Origin: Bacteroidota bacterium
GTDB taxonomy: Bacteria; Bacteroidota; Bacteroidia; UBA7662; CANHCV01
DNA length: 64,000 nt
Assembly: GCA_947459245.1 (NCBI GenBank)
Contig: CANHCV010000005.1
Coordinates: forward strand, 4,820-68,819
Reading direction: 5' to 3'
Shown piece after piece: positions 8,278-29,982 of the stretch (positions within the stretch are counted from its first letter, which is position 1; each line of letters starts with the position of its first letter). Below the pieces are notes generated by a model. That model did not search any database, was not told where the DNA came from, and was given only the letters and a program-made list of their open reading frames with translations. The position numbers and the translations under genes are program-made.

Positions 8278-8386
8278 ATGCGCTGGAAAATTAAGGGATT
8301 TGGTTCATTTTCAAAAGGAAGAATTCGAAAGAGCAGAAAATCGGCAAATTTGCACGTGTTTTCAAATTGCTCAGAGAGCGGGCACT

Positions 8387-8417
8387 TCCGGTGTCTGATG
8401 CTCTCGAAGGCACCGGA
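8387..8417. other. 7-bp inverted repeat hairpin (TCCGGTG...CACCGGA) in the divergent intergenic region
   Basis: It lies between the divergently transcribed genes at 8277 (-) and 8624 (+). No T-run follows, so it is not a canonical terminator. It may be an operator. Confidence 0.25.
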
Positions 8418-8623
8418 TAAAAAGCGCCCTTCTCCATTTTGTCCTTTTTTTTTGTAAACCTATTGTAGGACGAGACATACTTCAGAAATGAAAACAATCA
8501 ACCGGGACCAAGTCCGCCCCTCCCCGAAAGTAAAGTTAAGGTGTAGAGCCGTTTCAATCGTTTCCAAATTATTTATCTGCTTCGATAAATATCAAACCCA
8601 ATTTTGCTATATATTTACACTAT

Positions 8624-24398: not shown

Positions 24399-26006
24399 AT
24401 GAAGAATATTTACGCACTTTTTTTGATTTTTACCTCGATTTCGGTACTTGGTAATGTGCCTTTTCGTTTGTCGGTGAACCAGCTCAATTTCGCAACGTTG
24501 AACGAAAATTCCCGCGATAGCTTGCCCATTACCATTACGAATGATTATGCTGGAAGCCTTCGCATTCAGCTTCAATTTTTCGGGATTTTTCAAGATACCG
24601 CCTTCTCGGTTTCTCCCAATGATTTTACCCTTCCTCAAGGCGGTTCACGTACCGTTCATGTTCGTTTTGCACCCAAGCACAATGTTCGTTATGAAACGGC
24701 CATGATGGTTCAAACCACGGTTGGAGCGGGGTGGGCGTATTCTCGTCCGGTTTATCTTTCCGGAAACGGTGTTTACACCAACGCCTATTACGCAACATCA
24801 ACCAATTTAAGCGGTGAGGCGTTGAAGCAGGCGTTGAGAACCAAAATGAACCAAGGATTTCGAGCACTCTCTTACAACGAAGCCCGCGACAGCATGTATT
24901 TGCGGTTTGATAACTGGGCCACCAATGGTCGCGGAGCAACTTCCAATACCTTGGAATGCGTTTACACCGGTCGTCAAATTTCCGGATATACTTCCCGTAC
25001 TCAGGTTCAAAACACCCCGAACGATTTCAACTGCGAACACACGTTCCCGCAAAGTTTTTTCAGTTCGGCTTCTCCCATGATTTCCGATATGCATCATCTT
25101 TTTCCTACCGATAATAACGCGAACAACCAACGAGCCAATACTCCTTTTGGAGTGGTGTTGGGTGCCCCAACGTGGAGTCAGGGAGGAAGCAAACTGGGTG
25201 GCGGAGTATTCGAACCGAGGGATGTTCACAAAGGCGCCGTTGCTCGGGCCATGCTTTATTTTGGAATCATGTATGGCGGAAACTCCACGGTACAAATCAA
25301 CTATTTAACTTCTCAAGAACCCACGTTGAAATCGTGGACCAATCAGTTTCCACCCAATGCTGTGGATGTTCGCAGAAACAACGACATCGCACGTGCCCAA
25401 GGCAATCGGAATCCTTTGGTTGATTATCCTCAGTTTTTGCAACGCATGGGGGTTCTTTCTACCAATTCCGATCTTCCAAGAAGCAAAAGTTATTGGGTAA
25501 GTGCAACTAGAACCAGCAGCTCCACCCCCAGTGATGAGCACCGAATTTCCATTTACAACACCGGAACCGACACCTTGATTTTGGGTGGTTCGGGCTCCTA
25601 TTCACCCGCTAACGGATTTTTATGGGTGAGTCCGGGAACCACCGTAATTCCTCCCAACAGTTACAGCAACATGGGATTTTTCTGGAGTGGAGGCACCGAT
25701 TCCATTGTTGTTCCCACCAATAAAGCTGCGGGTGATCGGATTGTGATTCAATTGTTTTCGAGTTTATCTGCCGTTTCTCTTTTGGATGCCATCCGTTTGA
25801 ATAGTTGGGAGAATGAATGGGAAATCCTTGATTTGCCATCGGGTAAAACCTCCATTTCCTTGATGGATGTTCAGGGCAGATTGCTTCAGCACAAAGAAAC
25901 ATTTGGGAATCATATCCAACTTTCCAAGGAAGGATTACCTCTAGGGATTTACGTGGTGAAAGTTCGTTCCGAAAAAGGAGAACGCACGTGGAAGGTGAGA
26001 AGGTAA
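24399..26006 (+). CDS. Secreted endonuclease I family nuclease with a T9SS C-terminal sorting domain
   Basis: Endonuclease I motifs are present (CEHTFPQSFF, HHLFPTDNNANNQRANTPFG, RGAVARAMLYFGIMYGG). The C-terminal LGIYVVKVRSEKGERTWKVRR is a T9SS CTD. Confidence 0.75.
   Translation: MKNIYALFLIFTSISVLGNVPFRLSVNQLNFATLNENSRDSLPITITNDYAGSLRIQLQFFGIFQDTAFSVSPNDFTLPQGGSRTVHVRFAPKHNVRYETAMMVQTTVGAGWAYSRPVYLSGNGVYTNAYYATSTNLSGEALKQALRTKMNQGFRALSYNEARDSMYLRFDNWATNGRGATSNTLECVYTGRQISGYTSRTQVQNTPNDFNCEHTFPQSFFSSASPMISDMHHLFPTDNNANNQRANTPFGVVLGAPTWSQGGSKLGGGVFEPRDVHKGAVARAMLYFGIMYGGNSTVQINYLTSQEPTLKSWTNQFPPNAVDVRRNNDIARAQGNRNPLVDYPQFLQRMGVLSTNSDLPRSKSYWVSATRTSSSTPSDEHRISIYNTGTDTLILGGSGSYSPANGFLWVSPGTTVIPPNSYSNMGFFWSGGTDSIVVPTNKAAGDRIVIQLFSSLSAVSLLDAIRLNSWENEWEILDLPSGKTSISLMDVQGRLLQHKETFGNHIQLSKEGLPLGIYVVKVRSEKGERTWKVRR
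25980..26006. repeat. Gene-proximal copy of a 27-nt direct repeat (last 8 codons plus stop of the nuclease: ERTWKVRR-stop)
   Basis: gaacgcacgtggaaggtgagaaggtaa matches 28330..28356 at 25 of 27 positions. Confidence 0.65.
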
Positions 26007-26053
26007 TTGTTTCCAATGGAATCAATCGATTCGTGCTTGCTAGTACTGAATTC

Positions 26054-26080
26054 CGGTGCCTGAGGCTATCGGAGGCACCG
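26054..26080. other. 8-bp stem hairpin (CGGTGCCT / AGGCACCG, 11-nt loop)
   Basis: Seen directly in the sequence. It is part of the structured 630 bp non-coding region. Confidence 0.5.
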
Positions 26081-26092
26081 AAAATTTACCAT

Positions 26093-26202
26093 CCTTCGAC
26101 GTGCTCAGGGTCCGTCCTTCGACAAGCTCAGGTACCGCAGTCCATTGGTAATTAGTTCATTTCGTGGTTGCAAACGGGGGCTACCCTTCGGTAAACTCAG
26201 GG
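26093..26202. repeat. Three forward copies of the 17-nt motif CCTTCGnnnnnCTCAGG (26093, 26116, 26185), plus a GC hairpin GGGGGC...GCCCCC (26176..26214)
   Basis: The copies read ccttcgacgtgctcagg, ccttcgacaagctcagg and ccttcggtaaactcagg. A fourth, inverted copy lies at 26386..26404. Confidence 0.6.
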
Positions 26203-26259
26203 ACCTCCGCCCCCTATCCAAGTGTAATTTACGAAATTTTTTACTGATAGCCGTATCGG

Positions 26260-26306
26260 AAACGTTTAGAAACGTTTGTATCCGTTTATAAACGTTTAAA
26301 ACGGAT
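26260..26306. promoter_or_regulatory. Array of AAACGTTT palindromes (26260, 26270, 26290; a fourth at 26480) embedded in a larger inverted repeat ATCCGTTT...AAACGGAT (26280..26306). Candidate operator or recombination-directionality binding sites.
   Basis: Four identical 8-nt palindromes occur within 230 bp. This is far more than expected by chance. I did not notice this motif elsewhere in the window. Confidence 0.45.
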
Positions 26307-26385
26307 AATTCATTGAAATTATGGAAGATAGCATTTAGTTAGTGCGTGGGGAGGTTCCGAAGCATTTCGGGTTAAATTACGTGGT

Positions 26386-26404
26386 CCTTGAGCTCGTCGA
26401 AAGG
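26386..26404. repeat. Inverted copy of the CCTTCG...CTCAGG motif (ccttgagctcgtcgaaagg). It could pair with 26093..26109 in an RNA.
   Basis: The reverse complement, cctttcgacgagctcaagg, matches forward copy 1 at 15 of 17 positions. Confidence 0.5.
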
Positions 26405-26636
26405 TGGCGCCCCCTGGGGTATCGGTATTTTTTTGATTTATCCCTCGCTTTTTTATCCGATTGCCACCCCCAAATCGGGAAACGTTTATAAAAGTTGGTT
26501 CCGATTTATCCCGTACTTACGGGACACTCGACCACCGAAAAAACCGCCTTAATTTTCCATGAATTTTTTAAATGTCAAGGTATTTTAAAACTAATTTGTC
26601 ATTTGTTTTTTACATTTGAGCCAAATAAAATACGGA

Positions 26637-28304
26637 ATGAAAACGTTTTTCACCCTCCTCCTCGCTGCGATCGCTTTCGTGGCCTCCGCACAACCGCAAA
26701 AAATAAACTACCAAGGTGTGGCCGTGGGTGCCAACGGAAAACCCCTGAAAAACAGCACCGTGGGTTTGCGCCTTTCGGTGTTGGATAGCCTGCCTACCGG
26801 CAGCAACCTTTACACCGAAACCCAATTGGCTAGCACCGACTCTTCGGGGCAATTCTCCATTTTCTTGGGCGGTGGAACGGCCACGGCAGGAACCTTTGCT
26901 AACCTTCCTTGGGCGAACGGGAACGACAAATTTTTAAAATTGGAAATGGACGCCCAAGGAGGCACCAACTACCAACCCATGGGTACCACGCAACTCGTAA
27001 GTGTGCCGTATGCGTTGGCGGCGGGTACAGCCAAAACAGCCGATGTGGCCAAAGAATTGCAGATTGGTGCCCTCGTACGAGGTAACAACGGTGAAACGTA
27101 TTCGCTTACCATTGGGGCGACCGGCCCAACATGGGCGTGCATCCCACCGGTTACGGCAGCGAATGCCGGTCCCGCCCAGCTCAAGTTTTGCGCAAGCTCA
27201 ATAACCCTTACGGGCAATACCCCCAGCAATGGAATTGCGAGTTGGAGTATTCTTTCGGGTTCTGGCGGAAGTTTGGGAACGGCCAATGCTCCTTCCACTA
27301 CGTTTACGGGCGTTCGCGGAAATTCCTATTCGCTTCGTTACAGTATTTCCAATGCCTGCGGCAGCAGTTCCGATACTGTTGCGGTGATCTTGGCCACATT
27401 AACCACACCCGCGAGTGCCGGCCCTGATCAACTGAACCTTTCAGGAACTACGGCCATCCTCGCAGCCAACCCTCCCTCTGCCACTTCTAGAGAAACTGGA
27501 ACTTGGAGCATTCTTGCCGGCAGTGGAGGGAGTTTCAGTAACAATTCCAACCCTACTGCTACGTTTACCAAAGGAACCGATACTGCTTACACCTTGATAT
27601 GGACAATGACCGGCCCTTGCGGCAGCAGCCGAGATACCGTGAATTTACGTTTCCCTGCCCCGGTAGGATCGGCCTGCGGCCAAGCCGTCACCTACGCTGG
27701 TGAAAGCTACCCAATTGTACAAATTGGAACGCAGTGTTGGTTTGCAAAGAACTTGAATGTGGGCACCATGATAAATTTTTCGTCCTCTGCAGATAACCAA
27801 ACGAACAACAGTACAATAGAGAAATACTGTTACGACAACGACACTGCAAATTGCACAACGTACGGTGGCTTGTACCAATGGGCGGAGGCGGTTCAATACC
27901 AAAACGGAGCAACAAATGATACCTCTCCCAGCCCAGCCTTTTCGGGAAATGTAAAAGGAATTTGTCCTATGGGTTGGCACTTGCCCAGCGATGGGGAATG
28001 GAGTTCATTAGAAACGTTCTTGGGTGGTTCATTTTCAGGCGGTGCACTAAAATCCACCAGCAGTTTATGGACTTCCCCAAACTACGGAGCTACCAATAGC
28101 AGCGGATTTTCCGCGCTGCCAGCCGGGGCGAGCGATACTACTGGATCGTATAACACCATAGGAATCAGTACCTCCTTCTGGACTTCTACCGAGTTTTCAT
28201 CTATCCTTGCATATGGCACCCTTTTGAACTATAACTTTTCATTTGTCCAAGGGCTCAACGACATCAAGTTCTTCGGTCGTTCAATTCGCTGTATTCGGGA
28301 CTAA
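26637..28304 (+). CDS. Secreted protein with tandem Ig-like repeats and a C-terminal Fibrobacter succinogenes major paralogous (FISUMP) domain
   Basis: Signal peptide MKTFFTLLLAAIAFVASAQ, with the ATG at 26637 preferred over the TTG at 26616. Two tandem repeats of about 80 aa (xAGPxQL...WSILxGSGGS...CGSSxDTV). The C-terminal segment ICPMGWHLPSDGEWSSLETFLGG...GFSALPAG...FFGRSIRCIRD is the FISUMP signature. Confidence 0.7.
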   Translation: MKTFFTLLLAAIAFVASAQPQKINYQGVAVGANGKPLKNSTVGLRLSVLDSLPTGSNLYTETQLASTDSSGQFSIFLGGGTATAGTFANLPWANGNDKFLKLEMDAQGGTNYQPMGTTQLVSVPYALAAGTAKTADVAKELQIGALVRGNNGETYSLTIGATGPTWACIPPVTAANAGPAQLKFCASSITLTGNTPSNGIASWSILSGSGGSLGTANAPSTTFTGVRGNSYSLRYSISNACGSSSDTVAVILATLTTPASAGPDQLNLSGTTAILAANPPSATSRETGTWSILAGSGGSFSNNSNPTATFTKGTDTAYTLIWTMTGPCGSSRDTVNLRFPAPVGSACGQAVTYAGESYPIVQIGTQCWFAKNLNVGTMINFSSSADNQTNNSTIEKYCYDNDTANCTTYGGLYQWAEAVQYQNGATNDTSPSPAFSGNVKGICPMGWHLPSDGEWSSLETFLGGSFSGGALKSTSSLWTSPNYGATNSSGFSALPAGASDTTGSYNTIGISTSFWTSTEFSSILAYGTLLNYNFSFVQGLNDIKFFGRSIRCIRD

Positions 28305-28329
28305 CTTTGGTCCGCTCCCTGAGGTCCTC

Positions 28330-28356
28330 GAACGCACGCGGAAGGTGAGAAGATAA
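28330..28356. repeat. Distal copy of the 27-nt repeat (reads ERTRKVRR-stop in frame). It is the remnant of a T9SS-CTD gene end downstream of the FISUMP gene.
   Basis: The sequence is gaacgcacgcggaaggtgagaagataa. The FISUMP protein has no T9SS CTD, so this is not its own terminus. Confidence 0.65.
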
Positions 28357-28407: not shown

Positions 28408-29982
28408 ATGAGATTCGTTCTTCTATTCCTCCTTTTTCCCATTTTGGGGTTTGCCCAAAATTTTGCTTTTAACATTGAATTAAAGCCTAAATCCATTTCA
28501 GGATTTCCTGGATTGCATTCCTTTGCATTAGGTCATTTTCAAGGAAAATCGGTTTTTGTTGGTGGAAGAACCGATGGAATACATGCTCGGCAGCCGTTCA
28601 ATGCATTTCCATCGACAGGAAATAATTTGCGCATTTATGTTGTAGATTTTCAAACTCAACAAGTTTGGAGCTCATCGTTAGCAGGGTTAGATCCCTCGGT
28701 GGTGGATCAGCTTCAAGCGACCAATTTTAATTTCATTCAAAGAGGAAACGATTTAGTGATTGTTGGCGGATATGGATTTTCGGTTCTCGCTCAAAATCAC
28801 ATTACACATCCCCGATTAACGGTACTTCCCCTCGATATCATTGTTCCTAAAATCATGGCCAATCAATCTTGGAGTTCGGATATTTTTTCCATTCAAGACA
28901 CCAATTTTGCAGTGACAGGAGGTCAAATGGCCATTTTTGGAGACACTCTTTGTATTGTAGGAGGCCACCGTTTTGATGGGAGGTACAACCCGATGGGTCA
29001 TGCTACCTACACTCAAAATTATACGAATGCAATTCGTCGGTTTTTAGCCCAAAGACAGGGTTCGTTGTTTCAAATTCAATGGTTTTCTCCCCTCATTTCT
29101 CCCGAACATTTGCACCGAAGGGATTACAATTTAGTTCCAGTTTTGACAGCAACGGGTGCGAGAAAATATGTAATTAGTTCGGGGGTTTTTCAGCCACAAG
29201 TTGATTTGCCTTATCTCTATCCAGTTGAGATAGCGGCCCAAAGTATTATCCCCGATACTGGATTCTCACAGCGGTTGAGCAATTACCACAGTGCAAAAGT
29301 TTCCCTTTTTGACCCCATTCAACAAAGTATGCATTATTTATTTCTTGGGGGAATAAGTCAATACCAATACCAAAACGGACAAGTGGTTGCAGATGCAACC
29401 GTTCCCTTTGTTCGAACCATCAGTAGGTTGACTCGAACTTCTCAAGGACAATGGTCGGAGTTTCCCTTAGGGATGATGCCGGGCTACCTGGGAGCTGGTG
29501 CAGAATTGGTCATTGATCATCAAAACCCGGCATTCAATTCCGATGAAATATTTACACTTCCATCTTCGAATCTTCCCGATTCTTTATTTTTAGGATGGAT
29601 GGTTGGTGGAATTTCGTCTTCCATCCCTAATGCTTTTACCTCTAATTCAACGGGATCAACTTCTGCAAATCCTTTGGTGTACGAAGTTTGGTTGAAAAAC
29701 AACCGGGTTGCAACAACCACGATGGAAGAGACTTCTCCTTATGGACTTTGGAATTCCAGCAATCAAGAACTTTGGATAAGATGGGAAATGAAAACGGGCG
29801 GACCTGTTAAACTTAGTCTAACTGATTTGGAAGGCAAGTCCATTCGAAAGAGGATAATAAAAACGGTTGAACCCGGATTCCGAGAACATGCATGGGATTT
29901 GCAAGACCTACCTTCAGGAGTTTATTTATTTCATTTGAGCTGGGAAGGCAAATCGTTCTCCCAAAAAATCCTGATTCGTTAA
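28408..29982 (+). CDS. Secreted Kelch-like beta-propeller protein with a T9SS C-terminal sorting domain
   Basis: Signal peptide MRFVLLFLLFPILGFAQ. The C-terminal KLSLTDLEGKSIRKRIIKTVEPGFREHAWDLQDLPSGVYLFHLSWEGKSFSQKILIR is a T9SS CTD. Confidence 0.6.
   Translation: MRFVLLFLLFPILGFAQNFAFNIELKPKSISGFPGLHSFALGHFQGKSVFVGGRTDGIHARQPFNAFPSTGNNLRIYVVDFQTQQVWSSSLAGLDPSVVDQLQATNFNFIQRGNDLVIVGGYGFSVLAQNHITHPRLTVLPLDIIVPKIMANQSWSSDIFSIQDTNFAVTGGQMAIFGDTLCIVGGHRFDGRYNPMGHATYTQNYTNAIRRFLAQRQGSLFQIQWFSPLISPEHLHRRDYNLVPVLTATGARKYVISSGVFQPQVDLPYLYPVEIAAQSIIPDTGFSQRLSNYHSAKVSLFDPIQQSMHYLFLGGISQYQYQNGQVVADATVPFVRTISRLTRTSQGQWSEFPLGMMPGYLGAGAELVIDHQNPAFNSDEIFTLPSSNLPDSLFLGWMVGGISSSIPNAFTSNSTGSTSANPLVYEVWLKNNRVATTTMEETSPYGLWNSSNQELWIRWEMKTGGPVKLSLTDLEGKSIRKRIIKTVEPGFREHAWDLQDLPSGVYLFHLSWEGKSFSQKILIR

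Follow-up and report, generated by a model that had tools for sequence, protein, structure and literature searches.

What kind of element is the 630-nt spacer in front of a FISUMP gene of a Bacteroidota bacterium? The spacer (26007-26636) lies between two plus-strand genes, an endonuclease gene and the FISUMP gene, and is rich in hairpins and repeated motifs. It was analysed as part of a 64-kb stretch of the contig, referred to as the window, and all coordinates are window positions. Related loci compared with the window (metagenome contigs, relatives and plasmids) are given L-numbers. An earlier sequence-only reading, made by a model, had offered three interpretations: attachment (att) sites of a degenerate integrative element, a non-coding RNA or long 5' leader of FISUMP, and an element like a miniature inverted-repeat transposable element (MITE) or a repetitive extragenic palindrome (REP). 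The third was best borne out. On balance, the spacer is probably pieced together from dispersed, non-coding repeats of palindromic structure, which belong to at least three families of the REP/bacterial interspersed mosaic element (BIME), BOX or MITE kind. It is not one structured RNA, nor is it the leader of the downstream gene. Intergenic DNA of this kind is fairly ordinary for bacteria, and these repeat families appear to be undescribed. No open reading frame (ORF) of 60 aa or more lies wholly within the spacer, as had been stated. It had also been described as GC-rich, which does not hold, the GC content being 0.40-0.49 compared to 0.43-0.59 in the flanking genes.

A dispersed 23-nt hairpin unit

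Direct copies of the motif CCTTCG-N5-CTCAGG are present at 26093, 26116 and 26185, as the sequence-only reading had reported. With one mismatch allowed this 17-nt motif had five matches in the window compared to 0.14 expected by chance. The motif is the core of a dispersed hairpin unit of 23-24 nt, named REP1. The unit has the form CCTTCG-N5/6-CTCAGGGACC and its consensus over the related loci is CCCTTCG-N-CTCAGGGACC. Exact units numbered 52 in 258 kb of related loci, with an internal spacer of 5-6 nt and a consensus flank of GGGACC. Seven copies were found in the whole window and all are intergenic. The 630-nt spacer holds five: one sits in the tip of a hairpin, two follow each other in tandem, and the remaining two are insertions of exactly 23 nt. 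Single units, inverted pairs and tandem arrays with a 23-nt period were all observed for REP1, and in a larger repeat the unit is inserted, at its exact length of 23 nt, into hairpin loops. From 26093 to 26116 the distance is exactly 23 nt, so these two units form a tandem pair; head-to-tail triplets were found in L019/L029.

The two insertions were seen by comparison with L007 and L008. At the first site, in the loop of a GC-clamp hairpin, the window reads GGGGGCTACC/CTTCGGTAAACTCAGGGACCTCC/GCCCCC while L007 and L008 read GGGGGCTRCC/GCCCCC. REP1 units with other centres occupied this site in L006, L012, L018/L036, L020, L021, L026, L028 and L037. At the second site the window and L007 read ACGTGG/TCCTTGAGCTCGTCGAAAGGTGG/CG while L008 reads ACGTGG/CG (continuing ACGTGG/CGGCC). 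At both sites otherwise conserved sequence was interrupted by exactly one unit length, 23 nt, which is the behaviour of a small dispersed repeat (SDR). The clamp itself had been recognised earlier and was confirmed (GGGGGC at 26176-26181 and GCCCCC at 26209-26214). A TACC-CUUC-GGUA tetraloop proposed inside it was not upheld. It rests on the variable centre of the 23-nt unit and is missing from other inserts at the site, which have the centres GACTGG, GACCGG and GGCAGG instead.

The stem of REP1 itself is CCCT/AGGG, or CCTT/AAGG in the inverted copy, a compensatory change. It is 3-4 bp long and the loop is 11-12 nt. Longer stems around REP1 come from host sequence, as in the hairpin at 26054-26080. 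Direct reading of this previously reported hairpin gave an 8-bp stem (26054-26061/26073-26080) and an 11-nt loop, and the same hairpin type was found at window positions 8386-8415 and in L009 (60-90). Two motif copies had been overlooked, an inverted one forming the loop of this hairpin (26059-26075, minus strand) and one after the FISUMP stop codon (28318-28334, minus strand). An inverted copy at 26386-26404 had been proposed to pair with the one at 26093 and close a domain of about 310 nt. The copy is present, though degenerate, and the closure is not conserved: L008 is without the 26386 unit and the 5' unit of L007 is a degenerate one.

An IS110-family insertion sequence (IS) begins directly after CCTGAGGCTCTC in L008 (5669-6658) and L023 (1317-2627). 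L009 (1-55) begins inside the same IS110 element. IS110 elements integrate inside REP1 loops. The 23-nt unit is targeted site-specifically in this way, and the insertions are one cause of broken contigs in the vicinity of FISUMP genes.

A modular repeat with a phased palindrome array

Four AAACGTTT palindromes, at 26260, 26270, 26290 and 26480, had been listed and all were confirmed. So was a nested inverted repeat, in which ATCCGTTT (26280-26287) pairs with AAACGGAT (26299-26306). One modular repeat, referred to as the module, comprises the GC-clamp hairpin, the array of AAACGTTT palindromes and the hairpins downstream. It is dispersed in related freshwater Bacteroidota. Compared to the FISUMP upstream regions of L007 and L008 the window copy had 82-84% identity without gaps, with some blocks at 91-96%, while the coding sequence had 77%. 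The hairpin at 26472-26507 was kept in both loci, where a U-G pair is changed to C-G. A fifth AAACGTTT at 26641-26648 lies in codons 2-4 of FISUMP (MKTFF) and is probably a by-product of the signal-peptide sequence.

A 24-nt module signature, GCCCCCTAYCCAAKTNNAATTTAC, was used as a pattern on metagenome contigs. It matched 28 contigs, corresponding to approximately 20 distinct loci, and the 5' half of the module is common to these. There were 0 matches in viral contigs and none in a phage collection. The consensus starts with tandem GCAAACGGGGGCTAC units, which vary in number; next come the clamp hairpin, in which REP1 may be present or absent, and GCCCCCTACCCAAGTCAAATTTAC. The middle is a long imperfect palindrome, TAGYCGTA...(T/G)AAACG(T/G)TTA...TACGRCTA, in which the central unit is repeated three to six times and AAACG is phased at exactly 10 bp. 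The module ends with GTAAATTGCTCTCGGTGGGGGC, a GC hairpin and a T-run. The count of 10-nt array units ranged from 3 to 6 among copies. Other variants have different GC hairpins in the 3' part, usually then a T-run, and one of the alternative 3' parts occurs alone at many loci. One full and one partial copy are present in the window. The further copies whose existence was to be checked were found, at many other loci and in a second spacer of the same genome. A small protein encoded in the module was ruled out by the 23-nt and 10-nt indels between copies.

A third family, REP2, is a small hairpin repeat with six further copies, in L008 (two), L009, L010, L022 and L023.

The module neighbours are unrelated and include TonB receptors, purF, guaA, tyrS, obg, large adhesins of the type IX secretion system (T9SS), and IS3 and IS110 elements. 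Orientation relative to the neighbours is mixed. No neighbour gene other than FISUMP was shared by the module copies, and a FISUMP homologue was beside the module in only 4 of the 28 signature contigs, always divergent. This setting bears on the proposal that the phased AAACG(T/G) sites serve a transcription factor as operator or upstream activating array, through which FISUMP and other genes for surface or secreted proteins would be controlled. Such a role is quite improbable. The 10-bp phasing and the second site 200-220 bp downstream (26480) would suit such an array. A FISUMP homologue adjoins 4 of the approximately 20 distinct loci recovered without reference to FISUMP, and among the other neighbours TonB receptors, T9SS cargo and lipoproteins are frequent. 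However, copies also occur in convergent spacers and beside purF, guaA, tyrS and obg, the distance and orientation to the nearest start codon are inconstant, the FISUMP homologues of L009 and L047-L049 are without the module, and no regulator gene is consistently linked.

Module copies were frequently located at contig ends. The locus studied here was interrupted within the spacer in two independent assemblies, of which L001 ends at 26376 and L002 starts at 26269. Structural differences between near-identical strains start exactly at the module end.

Several individual loci were of note. L014 (500-1504) and L035 (2792-3027) have flanks that are 99.8% identical and diverge directly after the module T-run. 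The approximately 1 kb extra in L014 encodes a 130-aa secreted protein of GSGRQIG repeats and contains an inverted fragment of the alternative 3' part. Modules were paired in direct orientation in L025 (406 and 3755), L032 (1-174 and 3346) and L024 (623 and 1355). These pairs flank a two-gene segment (a 569-aa WG-repeat-like secreted protein and a 320-aa ORF) or an IS3 orfA remnant. L012 was considered as a clean insertion polymorphism and withdrawn, as its different 5' flank indicates a rearranged or chimeric contig at the repeat.

DNA repeat or RNA gene

The spacer folded equally well on both strands (z = -5.0 and -5.6), which indicates DNA palindromes rather than a strand-specific RNA. The Rfam covariance scan suggested by the sequence-only reading gave no match at gathering score in the window. 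Nothing was found in 25500-27200 at E ≤ 10 except a chance suhB match outside the spacer, and eight related loci gave sub-threshold chance matches only. RNAalifold was run on 19 module copies and the covariation term was +0.79. Loops were as conserved as stems in the module copies. The same reading had also called for compensatory changes in the stems, and covariation was minimal: four compensatory pairs were present, and 33 of the 42 predicted pairs never varied.

The module at 26164-26435 could also be a member of a multi-copy family of free-standing small RNA (sRNA) genes. Such a gene would be made up of a closing helix (GCCCCCUACC with GGUGGGGGC-type G-runs), a long AU-rich hairpin of AAACGUUU units and, as terminator, a GC hairpin at the 3' end with a U-run, with REP1 units as loop passengers. 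This is doubtful, and a number of observations nevertheless point towards it and weigh against a DNA repeat. The module is at least as conserved as adjacent coding sequence (82-88% compared to 77-84%), suggesting selection for function or frequent gene conversion. The plus-strand fold is favoured by the four compensatory pairs, equalled in 1 of 500 shuffles, and by two invariant U-G pairs which become A-C mismatches on the other strand. The sequence of the 3' hairpin varies (GGGGATTTATCCCC, GGGACTTGTCCC or CCGAAGCATTTCGG) yet it is always a GC hairpin, with a T-run within approximately 30 nt in nearly all variant-A copies and A-runs rare. Among 40 3' parts the hairpin was followed by a T-run in 23 and by an A-run in four, a few chance motif matches being included in these counts. 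The T-run behind the 3' hairpin looks like a terminator. Orientation is independent of the neighbours, as a stand-alone gene predicts. Conservation, the U-G and compensatory pairs and the T-runs keep an sRNA gene in play. To these are added two points on the mobility of the module. No clean empty site was found among the recovered loci, and terminal inverted repeats and a target-site duplication could not be defined, the flanks of unrelated copies being without duplication.

Other properties of the module do not fit an RNA gene. There was no conserved promoter at a fixed upstream distance, and a scan of 25900-26750 gave no sigma-70 promoters or intrinsic terminators. Between hairpin and T-run there are 10-25 nt in most copies and 60 nt in the window, and no canonical terminator was predicted. 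The window, L007 and L008 lack the outer arm (TAGYCGTA/TACGRCTA) of the long hairpin, and L025b, L027 and L032 lack the 5' clamp arm. The counts of the 10-nt units and of the 5' tandem GCAAACGGGGGCTAC units vary freely. Due to the lack of a fixed-distance promoter, the distant T-run, the conserved loops and the variable units, a DNA repeat was ranked first and an sRNA gene second. IS110 bridge RNA was rejected as an identity for the module, as the IS110 ends abut REP1 and not the module, which is in the opposite orientation in L023.

As DNA repeats, the units would have spread and been homogenised at the DNA level, and would have accumulated upstream of FISUMP's own promoter in a 2.3-kb block inserted at the endonuclease 3' end. 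The likely route would be a trans-acting enzyme that recognises hairpins in single-stranded DNA, recombination between copies, or both. The phased AAACG sites would be putative binding sites for the hairpin-recognising protein. Their local role may at most be to stop transcription between the endonuclease gene and FISUMP or to insulate the two genes from each other, and to provide hot spots of recombination that could favour turnover of surface-protein genes. No matching transposase for the module was found, and no genome-wide search for a transposase or REP-associated tyrosine transposase (RAYT) linked to the units was made.

The FISUMP promoter

A Bacteroidetes-type -7 box, TACATTTG, lies close to the FISUMP start codon. 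The type, TAnnTTTG, is the Bacteroidetes -7 consensus quoted in PMC4747536. Every FISUMP homologue examined has such a box, approximately 20 nt ahead of the start codon, and a matching one is in the same place in L006, L007, L008 and L013. It is 3' of the structured part, which is therefore upstream of the promoter and not a 5' leader. A riboswitch or cis-acting leader is located between promoter and start codon, in a fixed orientation and with one gene family, and none of this applied to the spacer. The proposal of a non-coding RNA acting as a long 5' leader of FISUMP was thus left unsupported by the proximal -7 box, the mixed neighbours and orientations and the lack of an Rfam family.

FISUMP homologues of 70-80% identity were found in quite different contexts. 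In L006 the gene is between a CarboxypepD_reg gene and moaC, in the same metagenome-assembled genome (MAG) as L003. In L007 it is between aspS and a sigma-70 gene, and in L008 it is after a transaldolase gene. The first 170 nt or so of the module are present in L006, inverted relative to FISUMP. This inverted arrangement of the 5' half was found in five loci (L006, L013, L017, L028 and L034). Four FISUMP loci, L009 and L047-L049, are without the module. In a protein search most FISUMP homologues were on very short contigs, which suggests that the family lies in hard-to-assemble regions. FISUMP paralogues were also observed as tandem pairs with spacers of 5-150 nt downstream of T9SS-tailed genes, in L047 (886-4347) and L048 (3001-6290).

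The inverted copies would be compatible with the region being an invertible promoter, that is, a phase-variation switch for FISUMP. Such switches are common for the surface proteins of Bacteroidales. The arms of a 25-nt inverted repeat (26089-26113 and 26383-26407) are separated by 269 nt, and contigs break inside the spacer. Bacteroides has invertible promoters with inverted repeats upstream of surface-protein genes, which are inverted by the Mpi and Tsr recombinases (PMC4747536). A surface-protein gene of Bacteroidota and upstream inverted repeats are shared with the present locus. The core of the Mpi repeat, which we take to be ARACGTWCGT, resembles AAACGTTT, and this consensus could not be verified in the literature consulted. 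However, the internal segment was inverted relative to the outer parts in none of 35 module copies, including five same-locus contig sets, and the promoter is outside the segment. The inverted repeat consists of two REP1 units which are not both present in L007 and L008, the inverted cases are whole modules at a different locus, and no TAnnTTTG box is conserved apart from the proximal one, which is fixed. A switch of this kind is already largely refuted and very improbable.

A 2.3-kb block inserted at the endonuclease 3' end

Homology to the two closest relatives, L003 and L004, ends at 25766 in the sorting domain of the endonuclease; it starts again at 28340 for L004 and at 29974 for L003. 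The endonuclease gene was 82-91% identical to those of the relatives up to 25765, and beyond this L003 and L004 stay alike. Its last 80 codons, which encode the T9SS sorting domain (25766-26006), are replaced in this lineage. In L004 the endonuclease gene is followed after approximately 60 bp straight by gene C; L003 also lacks gene C. The block of spacer and FISUMP is flanked by 27-nt direct repeats, aligned by BLAST as a 23/23-nt match at 95.7%. The right repeat is followed by a spacer matching the one behind the endonuclease stop codon in L004. As the spacer and FISUMP are missing in L004 and the gene end is repeated, the block was inserted in this lineage with duplication of the 3' end.

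The integrative element of the sequence-only reading was borne out in one respect only. The lineage-specific insertion with its 27-nt direct repeat stands, and the block between the repeats is missing from L003 and L004, as expected for an att site. No integrase or recombinase was found within the block, the sole gene of which is FISUMP, and the repeated motifs of the spacer are not confined to the insertion junction. The Pfam scan of 15 window ORFs (13 within approximately 10 kb on either side and two flanking the spacer at 8278-8623) gave no recombinase. No serine recombinase homologue was found by tblastn in the window or any related locus.

A broader version would place in the spacer the site at which a degenerate integrative cassette attaches or recombines, with the module as the point where FISUMP-type cassettes are captured by a recombinase encoded elsewhere. 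It draws on the block and also on other loci. Module and FISUMP occur together in at least five genomic contexts, two direct modules flank the two-gene segment in L025/L032, and strain-level variation begins at the module end. On two of three Adhaeribacter plasmids a serine recombinase gene is preceded by a related palindrome. Little credence is given to this version. In addition to the missing recombinase, the module is not at the edge of the block, where 157 nt of other repeats come first, and the direct repeat is the 3' end of a gene and not module sequence. The palindrome was absent from five other Bacteroidota plasmid homologues of the Adhaeribacter recombinase. It is also improbable, if somewhat less so, that the module represents new multi-copy structured sRNA genes or an integron-like recombination site shuffling surface-protein cassettes (FISUMP and others), with the phased AAACG as an array for a recombinase or accessory protein and REP1 as a loop-targeting mini-element new to the phylum.

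The Adhaeribacter palindrome, CTTAGCCGATTAATAAACGTTTATAAACGTTTATTAATCGGCTAAG, is related to that of the module and was found on three plasmids, twice upstream of a small serine recombinase. A serine resolvase res site was rejected, as the palindrome is missing at six further recombinase loci (the five other homologues and one Adhaeribacter copy). The plasmids, from cultured Cytophagales, have palindromes of 45-65 bp made of the module's own 10-nt AAACGTTTAT/ATCCGTTTAT units (L038 2990-3055, L039 2515-2558 and L040 2519-2575). On plasmids of Adhaeribacter, Hymenobacter and Pedobacter, a different palindrome of the type GAAACGACCGTTTTAC (AAACG-N3-CGTTT) recurs at a shorter distance from the serine recombinase genes. 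One Runella plasmid has a related, more widely spaced form (AAACGGTCAACGTTT). REP1 arrays gave no match to plasmids.

Comparison with known repeats

REP1 resembles REPs, BIMEs and REPINs (REP doublets forming hairpins), which are short extragenic hairpin units dispersed singly, as inverted pairs and in clusters (PMC3733652, PMC3116915, PMC2817692). As in those elements, units are often located just after stop codons. REP1 has the many dispersed extragenic copies of a 20-40-nt unit by which a REP is recognised. It differs in its stem of 3-4 bp and partly variable loop of 11-12 nt, compared to 8-9-bp stems and 4-5-nt loops in described REPs, and CGTC REP families have stems of 8-9 bp (PMC3733652). 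Only CGTC-type REPs were reported for Bacteroidetes in PMC3733652. Described REPs have an unpaired GTAG or CGTC tag at one end, and REP1 has no constant tag of either type in its 52 units. A GTAG on the minus strand beside the GGGGGC clamp (GGGTAGGGGGCGGTAGCCCCC) belongs to the module and not to REP1. Head-to-tail 23-nt arrays, which are common for REP1, are a further difference. REP elements serve as targets for IS110-family elements, as is the case for IS110/IS621, and this targeting was seen here in REP1.

Cyanobacterial SDRs, termed very small mobile repeated elements by Elhai and colleagues in 2008, are reportedly exact insertions of approximately 21-27 nt in conserved non-coding sequence. 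They are said to be frequent within other repeats and within the loops of hairpins. They belong to another phylum and differ from REP1 in sequence, and the likeness is a lead rather than a test.

The pneumococcal BOX element (boxA-boxB(n)-boxC) and the Neisseria Correia element are modular, intergenic and strongly folding and occur in either orientation. The module is similar to BOX in having a fixed 5' part, a variable count of short internal units and alternative 3' parts. It has no sequence relation to either element, its internal unit is only 10 nt (AAACGTTTAT), and the module as a whole is low-copy, with one full and one partial copy in 64 kb. Like MITEs, the module is 200-350 bp long, non-coding, dispersed in either orientation and associated with assembly breaks, and has imperfect 24-nt inverted repeats (GCCCCCTACCCAAGTCAAATTTAC and GTAAATTGCTCTCGGTGGGGGC). 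Unlike in MITEs these repeats are internal, with conserved sequence continuing outside them, so that the terminal repeats of a MITE are lacking, as are a target-site duplication and a matching transposase among the sequences found. We place REP1 and the module among the dispersed intergenic repeats of a known kind (REP/BIME/MITE-like), each as a new family.

Two other candidates were rejected. A template/variable-repeat relation as in diversity-generating retroelements (DGR) was not supported, as the spacer and the FISUMP 3' end had no similarity. For an origin of replication (oriC) with DnaA boxes there were TTATCC half-matches only and no skew change.

Other features of the window

The window neighbourhood consists of ordinary chromosomal genes, encoding LptD, an amidase, MlaD, a TonB receptor and a PorV-like protein. 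The nearest genomes are MAGs of uncultured lake Bacteroidota. A second spacer of the same genome, at window positions 8278-8623, is built from the same repeat families. The coordinates of the features are listed in Table 1.

Table 1. Positions of genes, repeats and signals in the 64-kb window (a dot marks a feature without assigned strand).
Feature	Position	Strand	Description
Second mosaic spacer	8366..8590	.	REP1-type hairpin, IS3-like remnant and module 3' part
REP1-type hairpin element	8366-8432		
IS3-like terminal inverted-repeat remnant	8447-8487		Compare L024 701-742 and L031 2414-2450
Alternative 3' part of module	8503-8575	-	83-92% identical to copies in 10 loci
Endonuclease gene	24399-26006	+	Endonuclease_1 protein with T9SS C-terminal sorting domain (T9SS-CTD), Pfam
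Left 27-nt direct repeat	25980..26006	+	GAACGCACGTGGAAGGTGAGAAGGTAA; last 9 codons including stop of endonuclease gene
Lineage-specific 2.3-kb block	26007..28329	+	Spacer and FISUMP; not in two closest relatives, L003 and L004
Hairpin with 8-bp stem	26054..26080	.	Loop and stem top are inverted REP1 unit CCTGAGGCTATCGGAGG, 26059-26075
Two tandem REP1 units	26093..26138	+	CCTTCGACGTGCTCAGGGTCCGT / CCTTCGACAAGCTCAGGTACCGC, 23 nt apart
Module copy, window type	26164..26512	+	Homologous to FISUMP upstream regions of L007 and L008
GC-clamp hairpin	26176..26214	.	GGGGGCTACC...GCCCCC; loop in L007/L008 only TACC/TGCC
REP1 unit in clamp-hairpin loop	26186..26208	+	CTTCGGTAAACTCAGGGACCTCC, 23 nt
AAACG(T/G) array, 10-bp phasing	26259..26308	.	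GAAACGTTTA GAAACGTTTG TATCCGTTTA TAAACGTTTA AAACGGATAA
Module 3' part	26350..26435	+	G-run; hairpin CCGAA-GCAT-TTCGG 26358-26371; CGCCCCCTGGGG; T-run 26429-26435
Inverted REP1 unit	26386..26408	-	TCCTTGAGCTCGTCGAAAGGTGG, 23 nt
Hairpin	26472..26507	.	AAATCGGGAA...TTCCGATTT; encloses fourth AAACGTTT
REP2, third repeat family	26508..26537	+	Small hairpin repeat ATCCCG-N-CGGGACACTCGACCACCG
Bacteroidetes-type -7 box	26611..26618	+	TACATTTG; TAnnTTTG type, 19 nt before FISUMP ATG (26637)
FISUMP gene	26637..28304	+	555 aa, PF09603 Fib_succ_major, signal peptide-like N-terminus
REP1 unit after FISUMP stop codon	28312..28334	-	Overlaps start of right direct repeat
Right 27-nt direct repeat	28330..28356	+	GAACGCACGCGGAAGGTGAGAAGATAA; 25/27 identical to left copy
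Second T9SS-tailed gene	28408-29982		Downstream of FISUMP

Implications

For annotation, a motif-rich spacer which folds at a z of approximately -5 can be explained by nested palindromic repeats, with no regulatory RNA needed. Three repeat families, undescribed as far as checked, are documented in an uncultured freshwater Bacteroidota lineage. One has a 23-nt unit that inserts exactly in hairpin loops and in which IS110 elements land. Another is modular, and its ends fall together with gene-content differences between strains around genes for surface proteins. Should these units be moved by a dedicated enzyme, the biology of the REP/REPIN type would be extended to a phylum in which it is poorly described, and the fragmentation of assemblies at FISUMP loci would be explained.

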